From: a virus
Strand: one strand, 5' to 3'
Virus record (IMG/VR): IMGVR_UViG_3300037423_001065
Span: 1-64,000 of that record
DNA: 64,000 bases
Part shown: piece after piece, positions 1 through 14,087 of the stretch
Layout of the letters: each line of letters starts with the position of its first letter
Numbering within the stretch: the stretch's first letter is position 1
The notes under the pieces: model-generated
Database searches by the model: none
Told to the model about the DNA's origin: nothing
Seen by the model: the letters and a program-made list of their open reading frames with translations, nothing else
Program-made: the position numbers and the translations under genes

Positions 1-1
1 C

Positions 2-1393
2 CGCGTCGCCGCGCACGGCAAGCACGGCGTCACCGGCGAGATTGACGGCGCCCACCACAAGATCACCTGGGACAAGGTCCTGGGCCACAAGTCGCGCGTC
101 GCCATCCACGGCCGCATCATCGACCAAGGCGAGGATGGCATGCTCCTACAGGACCAGGCCGGCCGGCGCCGCTACGTCGCTACCCCCAACGAGGCAAAAG
201 AGGACCCGCTCGTGATCGCGAAAGCATTCGACCCGCGCCGCCCCGTGCTCCTGTTCAAGGGCGGGCCGATCGCGAACCGGCCGGGCCTGGTCAAGCGGCC
301 GGTCACGGACAAGAACGGCGTCCAGACGCAGCGCTGGGTCAGCACCGACCAGGCGGCCGCGCCGGCGCAACCAGGCGCGCACGTCGGTTTCGTGAACGGC
401 GCGCACCGCGGGCACGGCCAGGTCACGGCCGCCGGCCAGCATGGCGTCACCGTCAAGGACGACGCCGGCGGCGAGCATCGCGTGCGCCACGGCGCCATCA
501 CGCACCACTGGGAAGGCGCCGGCAAGCCGACCAGCTCGCCGCACGAGCAGCGCCAGGCCGACGCCGGCGCCGAGCCGGCGAAGGGTGACGCAGTGTTCGA
601 CCAGGCCGAGGTGGCGAAGCTGCCGAAAAAGGTGAACCAGCCGCACAAGACCTGGGGCGACCTGGTCAAGCACGGCTCCGAGGGCCTGGAGCAGTTCAAG
701 CAGCAACTGTCCGGCATCGCGAAGTCCATGGGCCTGGTCGAGGGCAAGCGGCCCGACGACATGACCGAGAAGGACTGGGCCGACGAGAACGGCTTCGTGT
801 TCATCGCGCCGCTCAAGAGCGAGGCGCGCTCGAAGGAAAAGGTCGAGGCCGATTACGGCGGCGACTGGTCGCAACTGCGCGACGTGGTGCGCGCGACCAT
901 CAGCGTGCCCAGCATGGCGGACGTGAAAACCGCGATCGCCAAGCTGAAAGAGGCCGGCGTGCACCTGGCGCAGCAACCCAAGGACCGGTTCTCCGAGCCG
1001 ACCAGCGAGGGCTACCGCGACGCCATGACGATCGTCAAGCTGCCCAACGGCATGCTCGCCGAGCTCCAGATTCACGTGAAGGCGATGACCCTGGCGAAGG
1101 AAAAGGGCCATCACGCCTACGGCGTGTGCCGATCGCTGCGCGCGAAGTACAACGAGGCGTCGCCCACCGACAAATGGTCGGACGAGGACCACACCAAGTT
1201 CTACGAGGCGCTGAAAGAGCAGAAGGAGCTGTACGGCAACGCCTGGGCCCAGGCGACGGCCGGCGGCCAGCCGGAGGCGAAGGTCGCCGGCAAGGACGGC
1301 AAGCCCGGCGCGTCGCAAAAAAGCGACGAGCGGCCCTTGCAAAAAGGCGGGACTTCATCGAAAATGATCATGTTGGTTAGGAAATCGAAGTGA
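2..1393 (+). CDS. 5'-truncated multidomain protein: SH3/KOW-like repeats plus a RelA/SpoT-like (small alarmone synthetase-type) nucleotidyltransferase domain
   Basis: Frame is open from position 2 into ORF 140-1393. Motifs PLKSEARSKEK, LRDVVRAT, GYRD, ELQIH and GHHAY match the RelA_SpoT synthetase pattern. Confidence 0.75.
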   Translation, partial: RVAAHGKHGVTGEIDGAHHKITWDKVLGHKSRVAIHGRIIDQGEDGMLLQDQAGRRRYVATPNEAKEDPLVIAKAFDPRRPVLLFKGGPIANRPGLVKRPVTDKNGVQTQRWVSTDQAAAPAQPGAHVGFVNGAHRGHGQVTAAGQHGVTVKDDAGGEHRVRHGAITHHWEGAGKPTSSPHEQRQADAGAEPAKGDAVFDQAEVAKLPKKVNQPHKTWGDLVKHGSEGLEQFKQQLSGIAKSMGLVEGKRPDDMTEKDWADENGFVFIAPLKSEARSKEKVEADYGGDWSQLRDVVRATISVPSMADVKTAIAKLKEAGVHLAQQPKDRFSEPTSEGYRDAMTIVKLPNGMLAELQIHVKAMTLAKEKGHHAYGVCRSLRAKYNEASPTDKWSDEDHTKFYEALKEQKELYGNAWAQATAGGQPEAKVAGKDGKPGASQKSDERPLQKGGTSSKMIMLVRKSK

Positions 1394-1632
1394 ACGAAAA
1401 CCCGAACATGGTCTACATCGAGAACGAGGGCGCGCTGTTCCGCGGCCCGGCTCGTAGCAACCCTGTCGAGGTCTGGAACGTCGCGAAGGGCGCGTTCGTT
1501 CCGTACATGGGTAGCAAGGACAAGCCGATCGACTGGGGCAACGAAATCAGCGAGGCGGAAGCCAAGGAGCTGATGGGCGAAGGCGCCGAAGTCGAGGGCG
1601 AGCAAGAACAGCCGGCTCCTGCCGGCGAATGA
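1390..1632 (+). CDS. Small acidic hypothetical protein (80 aa), possible antitoxin/partner of the upstream enzyme
   Basis: GTG start overlaps the upstream stop (GTGA); phage-like codon usage. Confidence 0.7.
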   Translation: MNENPNMVYIENEGALFRGPARSNPVEVWNVAKGAFVPYMGSKDKPIDWGNEISEAEAKELMGEGAEVEGEQEQPAPAGE

Positions 1633-2187: not shown

Positions 2188-3342
2188 ATGGGCCTGTTTG
2201 TCGACCTCGAGCCGCTGTCCGAATCGCAAACGGACATGGCGCTCAACCTGATCTACAAGGCCATCCACGATCACAACGGCGAGGAGATTTGGCTCCCGCT
2301 GGACAACCCTTTCGTGGCGCGCCTCGCCGAGCTGTTCACGCAGCGCGGACTCGATCGCCTGGACGCCTTCCGCCGCGAGCTCAAGGCATGGTCCGAGGGC
2401 GCGCGTCACCGCGCCGGCATGGAGCGCGTCGCGCGGCCCGCCGGCATCATGGAGCGCTGGTCGCCTGGCGAACTCGAGCTGGTGAAGCTGTACCTCGAGC
2501 ACCTGCCGCCCGCCGAGTGGACCCTCGAGGACCACATGATGATGGTGGACTGGCTGACGCAGCGCTACCTGCCGGCCAGCGACATGCAGACCGAGGCCGA
2601 GTGGCTGGCGACCCGCGCGACGCTCATGGGGCGCGTGCAGGCGAGCATGGACCAGGTGACGGCCGCCCAGGCCGACCAGGTCATCGCGGCGCTGCCGCTC
2701 ACCGCCCAGGCGGCGATCGACCTGTTCCCGTTCACGAAACCGCAGCGCGCCGGCCTCGAGTACGCCGTCGAGCGCGCCGGCGAGAACGTGCGCGAGGTCG
2801 CCAACGACGTGCGGCGTCGCATGCGCCAGACGATCGCGCAGCACGTCAACGCCGTGCACCTGGGCGACGCGCCGCTGGCCGCCTCGCTCGAGACCAAGCT
2901 GGGCGACCAGTTCGCGCAGCTCAATCGCGACTGGCGTCGCATCGCCGTGACCGAGACCGTCGAGGCGCAGAACCAGGGCTACATCGCCAGCCTGCCGCGC
3001 GGCGCGCGCGTCAAGCGCATCGAGCAGTACAAGGGCGCGTGTAAGTTTTGCCGCAACATCGACGGCCGGGTCATGAACGTGGTCGACGCCGGCGACGTGC
3101 ACAAGAACGGCCAGACCGACATTTGGCCTGGCAAGACCAACGTCGGCCGCTCGGCGGCGCTGCACAAGCGCCTGGGCGGCCTGCTGATCGAGCGCGAGCC
3201 GCACGAGCTGTGGTGGCCGGCTGCAGGAACGCAACACCCCCACTGCCGCGGCCGCTGGGTGCCGACGATCGCCGACCAGGCCGGCGACGACCCGCAGTTC
3301 GGCGACTGGCTGCGCAAGACCCTGGCCGGGAGCAAGACGTGA
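2188..3342 (+). CDS. Head morphogenesis protein, MuF/SPP1 gp7-like
   Basis: WRRIAVTE, CKFC and C-terminal HPHCRGRW motifs typical of the MuF family. Confidence 0.8.
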   Translation: MGLFVDLEPLSESQTDMALNLIYKAIHDHNGEEIWLPLDNPFVARLAELFTQRGLDRLDAFRRELKAWSEGARHRAGMERVARPAGIMERWSPGELELVKLYLEHLPPAEWTLEDHMMMVDWLTQRYLPASDMQTEAEWLATRATLMGRVQASMDQVTAAQADQVIAALPLTAQAAIDLFPFTKPQRAGLEYAVERAGENVREVANDVRRRMRQTIAQHVNAVHLGDAPLAASLETKLGDQFAQLNRDWRRIAVTETVEAQNQGYIASLPRGARVKRIEQYKGACKFCRNIDGRVMNVVDAGDVHKNGQTDIWPGKTNVGRSAALHKRLGGLLIEREPHELWWPAAGTQHPHCRGRWVPTIADQAGDDPQFGDWLRKTLAGSKT

Positions 3343-3566: not shown

Positions 3567-4741
3567 CCATCCTGCTGCTCAAGACCCATGTGAGGGGGTA
3601 CGTCAAGCGCGACGGCACCGCGGTGGCCCCGCACCAGGACAAGCGCCCGGCCGCGCACGGGCATCCGCCGCCGGCGATGACCGCCGCCCAGGCGAAGCAG
3701 CGCGACCTGTTCGAGGAGCATGCGCCCAAGGTGTTTTCCATCTCAGCTCATGGCTCCGCGGTCGCGATCGCGCCCGGGCCCGACCTCGCCAGCTATGACA
3801 AGGTCCTGATCGGATTCAGCGGCGGCAAGGACAGCATCGCGTGCCTGCTCGCGCTTCTCGAGAACGGCGTCCCGCCGGAGAAGATCGAGCTGCACCACCA
3901 CGACATTGACGGTGAGGGCGCGTCCTTCATGGACTGGCCGATCACCAAAGACTACTGCCGCAAGATCGCGGAAGCGGTCGGCGTGCCGATCTACTTCTCC
4001 TGGCGCGAGGGCGGGTTCGAGCGCGAGATGCTGCGCGAAAACCAACGCACGGCGCCGGTGATCTTCGAAAAGCCCGACGGGACCCGTGGGCGCGCTGGCG
4101 GTGAACATGGACCGCTGGGCACGCGCAGAAAATTCCCCCAGCAGTCCGCCAACCTCACGACGCGCTGGTGCAGCGGCGCGCTCAAGGTGGATGTGATGGC
4201 CGCGGCCGTTCGCAACCAGGAGCGGTTCACCGGCAAGCGCACCCTAATCGTGACTGGCGAGCGCGCCGAGGAGAGCTCCAACCGGGCGAACTACAAGGCG
4301 TTCGAGCCCGATCGCGCGCACAGCTCGACGCGCCACGTCGACCACTACCGGCCGGTGCACGGCTGGAGTGAGGCCCAGGTCTGGGACGTGATGCGCAAGC
4401 ACGGCGTCGTGCCGCACCCGTCGTATCAGCTCGGCTACGGCCGGCTGTCGTGCCGGAATTGCATCTTCGCCGGCCCGAACCAGATTGCGACGAACAACAC
4501 GCTCTACCCGGCCGAGACCGGCAAGGTGGCGCAGCGCGAGCGCGAGTTCGGCGTGACCATCCACCGCAAAGAGGACCTGATGACGCGCGCCGCGAAGGGC
4601 CGCGCGTACCAGGCGGCGATCGACCAGCCGGAGGTGGCGGCGCTGGGCAACTCCAAAACCTGGGCGGGACCGGTCATCGTGCCGGTCGACCAGTGGAAGC
4701 TGCCGGCCGGCGCTTTCGGCGAGAAGGACGGACCATGCTGA
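3563..4741 (+). CDS. PAPS reductase-family (PP-loop) protein with N-terminal cargo tag
   Basis: FSGGKDS PP-loop, WCSGALK, TGERAEES and RLSCRNC motifs; likely start ATG 3563 (ATGA overlap). Confidence 0.85.
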   Translation: MTILLLKTHVRGYVKRDGTAVAPHQDKRPAAHGHPPPAMTAAQAKQRDLFEEHAPKVFSISAHGSAVAIAPGPDLASYDKVLIGFSGGKDSIACLLALLENGVPPEKIELHHHDIDGEGASFMDWPITKDYCRKIAEAVGVPIYFSWREGGFEREMLRENQRTAPVIFEKPDGTRGRAGGEHGPLGTRRKFPQQSANLTTRWCSGALKVDVMAAAVRNQERFTGKRTLIVTGERAEESSNRANYKAFEPDRAHSSTRHVDHYRPVHGWSEAQVWDVMRKHGVVPHPSYQLGYGRLSCRNCIFAGPNQIATNNTLYPAETGKVAQREREFGVTIHRKEDLMTRAAKGRAYQAAIDQPEVAALGNSKTWAGPVIVPVDQWKLPAGAFGEKDGPC

Positions 4742-6690
4742 TTGTGTTGGCGAAGGCCCACGTCAAGGGCTATGTGAAACAGGACGGCACCGTGGTGCGG
4801 CCGCACGACGACAAGCGGCCGGCGGCAAAGCCGGTACAGCCGTCGCTCGAGCTGCGCGAGCCCACCGGTGGCGACCAGGTCACGCCGTTCCCGTACGCGT
4901 CCGGCATGAGTCGACGCCGCGACATGGAGGCGGCGATCGAGTCGCCGGCCGGCCTGGGCACGGAAATCGGCGAGCTGTCCAACTTCGGCATGGACCGCAT
5001 CGTGGAAGCCATCCGGCGCGAGAAAAAGCCGGTGTTCGTGGACTCCGGCGCCTTCAACGCGTTCAAGCGCGCGATGCGCGAGGGCGACGCCAGCAAGGCG
5101 CGCCTGGACTTCGCGCCGATCTTCGCGAAGTACTCCGAGCTGTCGCGCCGGGTGTGCCAGGACGTGCCGTATCGCGACCGCGCGCTGCTCATGGTCGTCG
5201 CGCCCGACGTGATCGGCGACCAGGTCGCGACGCTCGAGCTGATCGAGAAGCACGCCGACCAGGTGCAGGCGTGGCTCGAGGCCGGGCACGAGGTCATCGT
5301 GCCATTCCAGCGCGGGCCGCTGAACCAGCGCGAGGCGTATGACCGCGTCGCCGCGGCGCTGGGCGGTACCGACTTCGTCGTCGGCATCCCGTCGGCGGCG
5401 GCCGCCATGACCGCGTCCGACCTGCGCGAGCTGCTGTCTGGCGACTACCTGCCCGATCGCCTGCATATCCTCGGCGCCGTGAGCTCGCACCGCATGGAGG
5501 AGCGCATGGAGGTGATCCGCGAGTGCTACGTCTCGGACGTGCCGGGAGTGACCTGCGACGCGAACGTGATGCGCTCGAAGCTCCAGGAACTCGGCGGCCT
5601 GTCCGGCGGCGTGAAGTTCGACAAGATCAAGGAGATTCTGTCGCGCGTGGTGCCGAAGCAATGGGGCGGCTCGCTCGAGCCCGTGCTGGCGAAGGCGATG
5701 CTGGACGAGGACGACGCCCAGGTGGGGTTCTTCACGGCGCCCGTGCGCCACGTGGACGTGTTCGCCCAGGGCTGGACGCCGCCGACGCGCGCCCAGGCCG
5801 AGGCCGGCGAGTACTTCAAGCCGACGGTGCAGTGGCGCGGCCTGACCATCCGCATCGAGAATCCCGCGGGCTCGACGCGGCACTGGCGTGGCGGCGCGAC
5901 GAAAATGCGCTACGACTACGGGTACTTCGAGGACACGATCGGCGCCGACGGCGACGAGCTCGACGTGTACCTGGGCCCGTCGCTGGCCTTCGCGCCGAAC
6001 GTCTACATCGTGCGCCAGCGCCGACACGGCGACCCGGCCGCCGGCTCCTGGCGGCGCTACGACGAGGACAAGGTCATGGCCGGCTTCCTGTCTGAAAAGC
6101 AGGCGCGCGCAGCCTACCTCATGCACTACGACGACCCGCGGTTCCTGGGCGAGGTCGTCACAATGCCTGTGGACAAGTTTGTGGAAAAGGTCCATGCGAT
6201 GGGCGGCAAGCCCGGCATGCTCAAGGCGCTGATGTTCATGACCCAGGTCGGGAACTACATGCGCAACGGCCATCCGGTGCAGGGCTACCAGCGCCACGAG
6301 ACGCGCGAAAGCACCGACCCGCACGCCGGCATCCGAGCGGCCCACCAGCGCCAGCGCCAGGCCCTGCGCGACCACTTCCGCCAGTACGGCGACGGCTTCG
6401 AGCTGCGCCACTTCGACGGCAAGCAGTGGGCCGTCCTGATGCCCGATGCGAGCCACGAGGGCAAGTACCGGTACCAGGTGTTCGATGACCGCGGGCTGCG
6501 CGCGCACTACACGTACAACCGGCCGGAGGACGCGCTCGACGGCGCCTACGATGCCGGGTTCCGCGAGCATGATCCTGGCGCCATGGAGCGCCTGGCGCCC
6601 GTCTGGGCGGCCCGCTTCGATGACCCCGAGGTGCAGGCCCGGGCGTCGGTCTCCGGCGAGCGGGAAGATGGCGACCGCACGCAATCGTGA
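4735..6690 (+). CDS. Polyprotein: cargo tag + TGT/DpdA-like base-exchange domain + inorganic pyrophosphatase-like domain + C-terminal domain
   Basis: VDSGAF, PDVIGD and HILG (TGT-like); IENPAGSTR, DYGYF, GADGDELDVY and DEDKVM (PPase-like). Start ATG 4735 follows AAGGA. Confidence 0.7.
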   Translation: MLIVLAKAHVKGYVKQDGTVVRPHDDKRPAAKPVQPSLELREPTGGDQVTPFPYASGMSRRRDMEAAIESPAGLGTEIGELSNFGMDRIVEAIRREKKPVFVDSGAFNAFKRAMREGDASKARLDFAPIFAKYSELSRRVCQDVPYRDRALLMVVAPDVIGDQVATLELIEKHADQVQAWLEAGHEVIVPFQRGPLNQREAYDRVAAALGGTDFVVGIPSAAAAMTASDLRELLSGDYLPDRLHILGAVSSHRMEERMEVIRECYVSDVPGVTCDANVMRSKLQELGGLSGGVKFDKIKEILSRVVPKQWGGSLEPVLAKAMLDEDDAQVGFFTAPVRHVDVFAQGWTPPTRAQAEAGEYFKPTVQWRGLTIRIENPAGSTRHWRGGATKMRYDYGYFEDTIGADGDELDVYLGPSLAFAPNVYIVRQRRHGDPAAGSWRRYDEDKVMAGFLSEKQARAAYLMHYDDPRFLGEVVTMPVDKFVEKVHAMGGKPGMLKALMFMTQVGNYMRNGHPVQGYQRHETRESTDPHAGIRAAHQRQRQALRDHFRQYGDGFELRHFDGKQWAVLMPDASHEGKYRYQVFDDRGLRAHYTYNRPEDALDGAYDAGFREHDPGAMERLAPVWAARFDDPEVQARASVSGEREDGDRTQS

Positions 6691-13526: not shown

Positions 13527-14087
13527 ATGAACAAGCCCGTCGTTTTCCTCAAGTCGCACGTCGAGCCCTACACCAAGAAGGACGGCACGACCGTTGCGGC
13601 GCACGAGCGTCTGGTGAACATGCGCGCTCACCCGAAGGGGTACAAGCCGGGCCAGCACGTGTTTTTCCCGCACCCGCAAAAGAAGGGCAAGAACGGCCTG
13701 GGCATCTACATGGGCGAGCGCGAGGGCAAGTCCGTGGTGCATCACGTGCACGGCGAGGACGGCAACCAGCATGACGTGGAGCACGACCAGGTCAAGGGCG
13801 CGCGCGGCATCCCGAAGCCCGCGGACCCGGCGGCCGACGCCGAGAAAAACCTCGAGCGCGCGAAGGGTGGCAACAAGTCCGGCGTGCCGGACGATCACCT
13901 CGAGCTCATGGAGCAGTCGCTCGCCAACGACGAAAACAGCTCCGACGAGGAGCTGCATGACCATTTCGTCAGCTCCGGCGTGCACCCGGACCATGCCCGC
14001 GAGGCGATCAAGCACCGCGAGAAGTTCACCTCGGCCCCGCTGCCGGCCGCCGGCGAGCTGCGCCGGCTGATGGCGAAAAAGGACTGA
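13527..14087 (+). CDS. Hypothetical protein with N-terminal cargo tag and SH3/KOW-like domain
   Basis: Starts VVFLKSHVEPYTKKDGTTVAAH, similar to the N-termini at 3563, 4735 and 6726. Confidence 0.75.
   Translation: MNKPVVFLKSHVEPYTKKDGTTVAAHERLVNMRAHPKGYKPGQHVFFPHPQKKGKNGLGIYMGEREGKSVVHHVHGEDGNQHDVEHDQVKGARGIPKPADPAADAEKNLERAKGGNKSGVPDDHLELMEQSLANDENSSDEELHDHFVSSGVHPDHAREAIKHREKFTSAPLPAAGELRRLMAKKD

Follow-up and report, generated by a model that had tools for sequence, protein, structure and literature searches.

A candidate toxin–immunity cassette, encoding a Tas1-like pyrophosphokinase domain and a small acidic partner, among the head genes of a phage of ~98 kb

The stretch of DNA analysed here (the window) comprises bases 1–64000 of the 98,102-bp virus record IMGVR_UViG_3300037423_001065, and it opens within a gene, here called the effector gene, whose product joins an N-terminal carrier module to a C-terminal domain of the RelA/SpoT type; a gene for a small acidic protein follows at 1390..1632. 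On balance, and with moderate confidence, we favour the interpretation that the two genes form a toxin–immunity cassette within the head-morphogenesis operon of a non-integrating phage of ~98 kb, the cassette consisting of a packaged Tas1-like enzyme and an acidic inhibitor of its active site. In the scheme that we propose, a beta-barrel carrier of ~200 aa precedes an intact Tas1-like pyrophosphokinase domain of ~230 aa, which would move pyrophosphate from ATP to the 3′-OH of an acceptor, most likely ADP or ATP, to give (p)ppApp. The acidic protein of ~74 aa would cover the acceptor and catalytic sites and silence the enzyme in the producing cell, and the carrier, or a fusion to the portal or to MuF in other phages, would probably place the enzyme inside the procapsid. 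It would then enter the next host along with the DNA and there, without its inhibitor, use up ATP and bring host metabolism or defences to a halt. Toxicity, product, packaging and a benefit to the phage are what we infer; the location of the effector gene among head genes, the fusions of its domain to portal and to MuF, and a carrier in common with Zeta toxins would, as sequence features, suit an effector that is associated with the virion and restrained by an inhibitor.

Bases 1–254 of the record recur at 97849–98102, so the record is circular or terminally redundant, and the open reading frame (ORF) at 2..1393 on the + strand is therefore truncated by the start of the window. The effector gene begins with an ATG at L003:19640 (genome 97742), which overlaps the stop codon of the upstream portal gene as ATGA; that gene encodes 585 aa and matches TIGR01537 (E 1.6e-9). 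The first 36 codons lie at genome 97742–97848, across the circular junction, and the last 463 codons with the stop occupy 1..1393. The full protein has 499 aa, and residue numbers below are those of the 463-residue fragment encoded in the window. All features given for the effector gene and its small partner gene are on the + strand.

The pyrophosphokinase domain and its acceptor

The Tas1-like domain spans fragment residues 196–425 (587..1276), as judged by profile, fold and alignment. The synthetase motifs listed in a preliminary description, which was made from the letters of the window alone, are all present, namely LKSEARSKEK (with K272 at 815–817 and K280 at 839–841), DVVRAT (D294 at 881–883), EGYRD (Y338 at 1013–1015) and AELQIH (E354 at 1061–1063); D294, Y338 and E354 align with D264, Y308 and E323 of RelSeq. 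The Pfam family RelA_SpoT (PF04607) matches residues 278–371 with an E-value of 1.7e-6 and a score of 28.8 bits, the cut-off being 27, and a six-frame search of the whole genome found this one RelA_SpoT domain only (31.9 bits). That description had also claimed the lack of a hydrolase domain, and this holds for the protein and for the genome as a whole: no HD/hydrolase domain was found in either, HD_4 included.

When solved structures were searched with phmmer, Tas1 (PDB 6ox6), the (p)ppApp synthetase of type VI secretion, ranked first. A profile built from 31 relatives matched Tas1 at E 1.5e-9, followed by Rel, RelA, RelQ and RelP, and in all picked out 15 solved chains of Rel, RelA, small alarmone synthetases (SAS) and Tas1. 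The AlphaFold2 model has a predicted local distance difference test score (pLDDT) above 90 across residues 200–420, and its best Foldseek match is once more Tas1 (E 1.1e-7), followed by small alarmone synthetases, with Tas1, RelQ and RelP all falling at E 1e-7 to 1e-6. K272, K280, D294, R297, Y338, E354 and Q356 are invariant across the 31 relatives, and most of these catalytic residues are invariant also across 20 diverse domains. Because of this invariance, and because both fold and sequence match those of known enzymes, the protein is very probably an active enzyme. Searches of PHROGs, NCBIfam and PADLOC returned no match for either the effector or its small partner, a trivial RelA match in NCBIfam excepted.

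The acceptor is less readily assigned. The published signatures of Apk enzymes are R-Y-T at syn2, G-x-N at syn3 and Y-H at syn4, and those of RelA/SpoT homologues (RSH) are A-V-R, S-x-H and I-R (PMC12226406). The effector has R-A-T at syn2, D-A-M at syn3 and I-H at syn4. Its syn2 and syn4 motifs resemble those of Apk2 (RYT, YH) and of Tas1 (RNT) rather than the AVR and IR of RSH, and the SxH motif that reads guanine is replaced by D-x-M, with D-I-N at syn3 in some relatives. From these motifs (p)ppApp appears the most likely product; the syn3 motif (GYRDAM), however, matches neither GxN nor SxH, and the acceptor is therefore uncertain.

One alternative is that the enzyme makes (p)ppGpp, that a stringent-like response reprograms host transcription and translation, and that a hydrolase of the MESH1 type resets it in relatives. 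The HD_4 partner encoded by relatives that resemble Bordetella phage vB_BbrM_PHB04 has MESH1 and the hydrolase domains of SpoT/Rel as its nearest matches (E 5e-36 to 1e-16), and it matches the (p)ppApp hydrolase Aph1 (7smg) at just 6e-4. Such a partner does not discriminate between the two products, because some MESH1-like small alarmone hydrolases also cleave (p)ppApp. The (p)ppGpp reading also draws on the retention of the stacking tyrosine Y338, and on the alarmone-like response proposed for RelA/SpoT domains of polyvalent proteins (Iyer et al. 2017, PMC5512222). It is nevertheless an unlikely one in our judgement, with the guanine-recognising SxH replaced, with syn2 and syn4 Apk/Tas1-like by the published signatures (PMC12226406), and with Tas1 the best match in both sequence and fold.

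Fainter still is the prospect that the enzyme pyrophosphorylates the 3′ CCA end of tRNA, like FaRel2, PhRel2 and CapRel, and so blocks translation with nucleotide pools unaltered. Such an activity would suit a RelA/SpoT domain of the toxic type that has a small partner to neutralise it, and would suit the basic character of the protein (isoelectric point, pI, of 9.3). The HD partner would fit as well, because small alarmone hydrolases can reportedly reverse tRNA pyrophosphorylation too. PADLOC, however, gives no match to a model of the toxic small alarmone synthetase (toxSAS) or CapRel type, and among solved structures it is Tas1 and SAS enzymes that form nucleotides which rank highest, not the toxSAS that modify tRNA. 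We regard tRNA modification as improbable and retain (p)ppApp as the most likely product.

The carrier module and its cargo

The carrier module (fragment residues 1–175; 2..526) is made up of small beta-barrels in which HG(V/I)T(V) motifs recur. Pfam, PHROGs and NCBIfam contain no family that matches the N-terminal 200 aa, and a protein atlas search with the N-terminal 175 residues yielded no usable match. More than 268 proteins match the effector over its full length, at 40–90 % identity, and the sole named homologue is gp034 of vB_BbrM_PHB04, a cultured myovirus of ~94 kb, whose gene order is portal, gp034, the 69-aa gp033, an HD_4 hydrolase, a metallophosphatase and a MuF-like gene. A search for virion proteomics of PHB04-like phages found none. 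The effector gene of the present phage likewise sits between the portal gene and a MuF-like gene.

A survey of 79 IMG/VR loci places the N-terminal module of ~200 aa after the portal gene in every case. Its cargo varies: 34 loci have the RelA domain and 23 a Zeta-toxin kinase (PF06414, E 1e-17 to 1e-25), and at 20 loci the module is alone, the stand-alone proteins being of 100–250 aa. When these states are laid on a portal tree they switch at least 11 times. In five further contigs, which belong to two diverged lineages, the RelA domain is in frame at the C-terminus of a portal of the Phage_portal_3 family (866–904 aa). Run against 1.84 billion representative proteins, the domain profile gave 492 clusters at E <1e-30, and fusions of this RelA subfamily among the clusters scanned are to MuF (P0151), to ART-PolyVal, to Acb1, to portal with InPase, and to portal alone. 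It is chiefly these fusions to virion and polyvalent proteins that make the enzyme, on sequence grounds, probably head-associated, and the portal-fused forms all but force the domain into the capsid.

Some of the fusions are single polypeptides of considerable size: P0177 (1430 aa) carries Acb1, a nuclease directed against the cyclic-oligonucleotide-based antiphage signalling system (CBASS), P0155 (928 aa) carries ART-PolyVal, and P0199 (1030 aa) carries both portal and InPase. The carrier itself may also be fused, since a 787-aa ORF at L082:3478–5841 apparently joins portal and N-terminal carrier module in one frame; it has no Pfam match.

The arrangement just described also bears on a reading in which nothing is packaged, the two genes being an ordinary phage-borne toxSAS toxin–antitoxin or exclusion module, active within the infected cell through abortive infection or superinfection exclusion, whose place in the head operon is incidental. 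Phage-encoded toxSAS pairs do exist, for example of the PhRel type, and the genes here are adjacent, with stop and start overlapping or 14 nt apart. A chance location is hard to reconcile with a toxin that always comes with the ~200-aa carrier after the portal gene and elsewhere is fused in frame to portal, MuF and polyvalent proteins, or with a Zeta-toxin version that uses the same carrier at the same position. The genome was also searched for a tyrosine integrase, and none was found. We hold a module that is never packaged to be a poor prospect, and prefer to regard the effector as a packaged one.

Positions 203..340 encode a linker, poorly ordered in the model, that contains conserved lysines and leads into a basic beta-hairpin, GLVKRPVTDKNGVQTQRWV. 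The element includes K74 (IAKA; 221–223) and K86 (LLFKG; 257–259). The C-terminal tail (1277..1390) is disordered, contains LQK(G/S), with K448 at 1343–1345, and ends in the hydrophobic run KMIMLVRK. The preliminary description had listed lysine motifs on both sides of the domain, an argument that survives only in part. As a pattern the motifs carry little weight: 13 of the 45 lysines (29 %) precede S, A, T or G, against a background of 32 %, and several instances lie within the catalytic domain. The bare motif of lysine before a small residue was dropped as evidence of processing, the dipeptide count being at chance. Conservation, on the other hand, sets apart three of the four lysines that had been flagged, with K74 invariant and K86 and K448 at least 90 % conserved; the flagged VRKS site is not conserved. 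The three conserved lysines lie in low-confidence segments of the model (residues 68–89 and 423–463). The C-terminal L-x-K-S and hydrophobic run are common to RelA-type and Zeta-type carrier proteins and are absent from the portal fusions. The stretch after K86 resembles the N-terminal tag of this phage's other head-module enzymes and the N-terminus of the relatives' HD hydrolases, a likeness that would be compatible with a packaging or processing signal; processing remains a putative role for the lysine motifs.

The acidic partner and the hydrolase neighbours

The overlapping acidic ORF of 80 aa described at the outset does exist, and its product has a pI of 4.3. Read from the GTG at 1390, which overlaps the effector stop codon as GTGA and is preceded 5 nt upstream by AGGAAA, it encodes 80 aa; read from the ATG at 1408, a conserved methionine 14 nt past the effector stop, it encodes 74 aa. 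In most relatives the ATG of the small ORF overlaps the effector stop codon. The protein, a predicted inhibitor, has a core of ~57 residues with an invariant IENEGALFRGPAR motif and belongs to no Pfam family, and it is 68 % identical to its PHB04 counterpart (gp033), as against 52 % for the enzyme (gp034).

The strongest single observation for the pairing of the two genes is a clean natural swap of the toxin–immunity cassette between L013 and L019. The DNA of these near-identical phages has 98.9 % identity across portal and carrier and 96 % across the HD gene, whereas the RelA domain is 68 % identical and the tail and small ORF cannot be aligned (L013:3744–8192, L019:3530–8085). Toxin domain and small gene have therefore been exchanged as one unit, with the hydrolase kept, and the swap pins the small gene to the toxin domain. 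The wider survey agrees. By tblastn the small ORF lies directly after the RelA domain in 24 of the 34 IMG/VR loci that have the domain; at L020, L022, L028 and L040, where tblastn fails, a diverged ORF of ~70 aa occupies the same position, and those of L022, L028 and L040 are homologous to the small protein (hhalign probability 92–94 %). Only one of the 45 loci lacking the RelA domain has the small ORF, and when the search proceeds outward from the small ORF, the domain adjoins it in 20 of 22 loci. Beside the portal–RelA fusions the small ORF is kept but inverted, so that it converges on the toxin gene.

Carriers of the Zeta type are followed by a conserved ORF of their own, of 55–64 aa, with the motif IPSPEQRPDLYDD...PDYIQKLIAER and no Pfam match (L036:7500–7685, L039:7485–7676, L049:2047–2214 and L062:7698–7892), and this is presumably a Zeta-specific partner. 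In P0128, P0132 and P0135 the Zeta-associated peptide is fused to the C-terminus of a RelA-type small protein.

Prediction of the toxin–partner complex, a check that had been proposed beforehand, was run three times with three controls, using domain residues 196–425 and residues 1–60 of the small protein. The complex scored 0.90, against 0.25 for the best control, with the small protein placed over the active site; of 80 solved complexes 58 attain that score, as do 2 of 110 pairs that are mismatched. At least 94 % of contacts are common to the runs, and the pLDDT of the partner is at least 89. On the enzyme side the predicted interface takes in the catalytic and acceptor sites, with K280, D294, K327, Y338, D340, E354 and Q356; the partner contributes its invariant motif. 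The model supports binding of the RelA domain by the small protein.

Tight binding would equally be predicted of an assembly chaperone or adaptor that stabilizes the toxin domain or hands it to the procapsid and inhibits nothing. We give this very little credence, since the predicted interface covers the catalytic aspartate and glutamate and the acceptor-stacking tyrosine, it is the catalytic domain, not the carrier, with which the small gene is exchanged, and this gene persists beside portal-fused forms, which need no adaptor. That the effector is a catalytically dead structural protein was rejected, every catalytic residue being invariant.

Several observations weigh against a Tas1-like enzyme with a dedicated inhibitor. 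The Pfam score exceeds its cut-off by a mere 1.8 bits, identity to Tas1 is ~19–20 %, the syn3 motif fits neither published signature, and the HD partner of relatives is MESH1-like (E 5e-36) and matches Aph1 weakly. In sequence the small protein matches neither Tis1 nor any other solved protein (PDB, E up to 10, noise apart), and its model has no Foldseek match. In a wide search with VIA, Tis1 came second of 48,161 chains, but weakly (Z 2.8, tied with unrelated chains), and the superposition of the two (root-mean-square deviation 3.6 Å, 56 residues aligned, 20 % identity) is a lead, too weak to establish homology. The complex of Tas1 with Tis1 has already been solved, and the score of the predicted complex may partly reflect likeness to it. 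Phylogenetically independent contrasts of the RelA domain with the small ORF or the HD gene number four, none of them opposite in direction, with p of 0.25–0.5, too few for the test to lend support. The exceptional locus with a small ORF and no RelA domain, L038, is of the Zeta type, and its small ORF looks like an orphan immunity gene. Lastly, the phage has neither hydrolase nor integrase, and an immunity protein in a probably lytic-only phage lacks a clear rationale beyond protecting late ATP-dependent steps.

The small ORF is followed by ~550 bp without an ORF, by a weak MuF/SPP1-gp7-like gene (2188–3342) that is separate from the effector gene, by a gene for a protein resembling phosphoadenosine phosphosulfate (PAPS) reductase, and by one for an InPase-containing protein. 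A scan of the + strand of 1–2300 for sigma-70 promoters and intrinsic terminators gave nothing beyond shuffled expectation. Relatives place an HD_4 hydrolase gene after the small ORF, and the stretch without an ORF (1633–2187) stands where most of them have it; L014, a 90 %-identical relative, likewise has there a stretch with neither an ORF nor a remnant of the HD gene, 80–84 % conserved with that of the present phage. No remnant of an HD gene was found within 1500–2300, and the hydrolase is therefore absent from this lineage rather than decayed in place.

Where HD_4 hydrolases do lie beside the toxin, those at L020:4888–5481 and L022:7684–8280 and gp032 of PHB04 (L004:10586–11161) begin with a tag of hydrophobic residues, a lysine and a small residue, followed by a basic hairpin, LLFK(S/T)..GYTRRDGVYVSPH. 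The same tag heads the PAPS-reductase-like and InPase proteins of the window (4738–4806 and 13539–13610). Because the tag is shared with head-module enzymes, the hydrolase may be head cargo as well. Synthetase, hydrolase and pyrophosphatase together would amount to a futile cycle from ATP to AMP.

A wider and distinctly tentative proposal is that the portal-adjacent carrier of ~200 aa defines an undescribed family of MuF-independent phage polymorphic toxins, in which the carrier would bring either a Tas1-like pyrophosphokinase or a Zeta kinase, as interchangeable cargo, into the capsid, each with a small cognate immunity gene. Brief depletion of ATP by the ejected enzyme would then disarm ATP-dependent defences before phage genes are expressed, in phages that are probably lytic only, and in relatives the tagged HD hydrolase and InPase might possibly close the ATP-to-AMP cycle.

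Comparison with described systems

The closest described system is the polymorphic toxin–immunity module of the Apk2–IapK–Aph1/Tas1 type, which is a better fit than a classical toxSAS pair. Apk2, IapK (BcTis1) and Aph1 are encoded with MuF polymorphic toxins of temperate phages of Bacteroides caccae, S. pneumoniae, M. haemolytica and also P. multocida; the immunity protein that binds the toxin is never missing but the hydrolase can be (PMC10083569, PMC12226406), and the binding proteins are cognate-specific whereas the hydrolases are generic (PMC12226406). The present cassette is similarly organized, in that a head-module protein ends in a toxin domain of the RelA/SpoT type, that a small gene directly after it encodes an immunity protein (here a putative one) occluding the acceptor site (here as predicted), and that an HD hydrolase gene comes next, variably present (here in relatives). 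The exchange between L013 and L019 of toxin domain and small ORF, with the HD gene kept, mirrors the division into specific immunity and generic hydrolase.

The differences are nonetheless numerous. The carrier is an undescribed module of ~200 aa adjacent to the portal and not MuF, the MuF-like gene being separate, and the N-terminus of the effector has neither the PAAR delivery domain of Apk1 nor the MuF domain of Apk2. No similarity of sequence to Tis1 was detected in the small protein, the relatives' hydrolase is of the MESH1 type, not the Aph1 type, and is missing from this phage, the syn3 motif differs from that of Apk, and no integrase was found in this ~98-kb phage, unlike the temperate phages with Apk2. 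Tas1 (Apk1) and its immunity protein Tis1, of Pseudomonas aeruginosa (PDB 6ox6), provide the best solved relative by sequence and fold, and Tis1, with 76 residues in the structure, is in the same size class as the small ORF; Tas1, however, is delivered by a PAAR module of the type VI secretion system and not by a phage head.

RelA/SpoT domains, Zeta-toxin-like kinases and InPase have all been listed as effector domains delivered from phage heads (Iyer et al. 2017, PMC5512222). The effector resembles the polyvalent, MuF and portal-fused proteins of that list (PMC5512222) in being encoded among head genes and in belonging to a domain subfamily that is fused to MuF, ART-PolyVal, Acb1, portal and InPase. 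It departs from the polyvalent proteins in having a single catalytic domain, a carrier not named there and a dedicated small inhibitor gene (PMC5512222). Polymorphic toxins typically have immunity genes; polyvalent proteins typically do not.

The label of a toxSAS–antitoxin-like pair, given in the preliminary description, is apt as a resemblance, the toxin being one that a neighbour neutralizes, and fails as a class assignment, the domain being always on the carrier, the portal or a polyvalent protein, with no match in PADLOC. Its broader reading, of a virion-delivered enzyme kept in check during assembly, is supported as far as the domain match, the predicted binding and the head-module setting go. 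In toxSAS systems (FaRel, FaRel2, PhRel, PhRel2 and CapRel) a toxic synthetase is reportedly neutralized by the product of an adjacent gene, and some of these systems use small alarmone hydrolases as antitoxins. The toxins stand alone and act in the cell that encodes them, often as anti-phage defence. The effector has in common with them a toxic-type RelA/SpoT synthetase without a hydrolase domain and an adjacent gene predicted to neutralize it, and differs in having the domain on a head-module carrier or on the portal itself.

The carrier and the inhibitor family are new, while the logic of a toxin with its antidote is already known. For Apk2 the question was raised of whether phage (p)ppApp-type toxins travel in virions, and to what benefit (PMC10083569). 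It becomes testable here, where there are a cultured member (PHB04, with gp034 and gp033), portal-fused forms, a natural swap and a new carrier and inhibitor family. A toxin–immunity logic so far described for temperate phages and secretion systems would thereby extend to large phages that encode no integrase.

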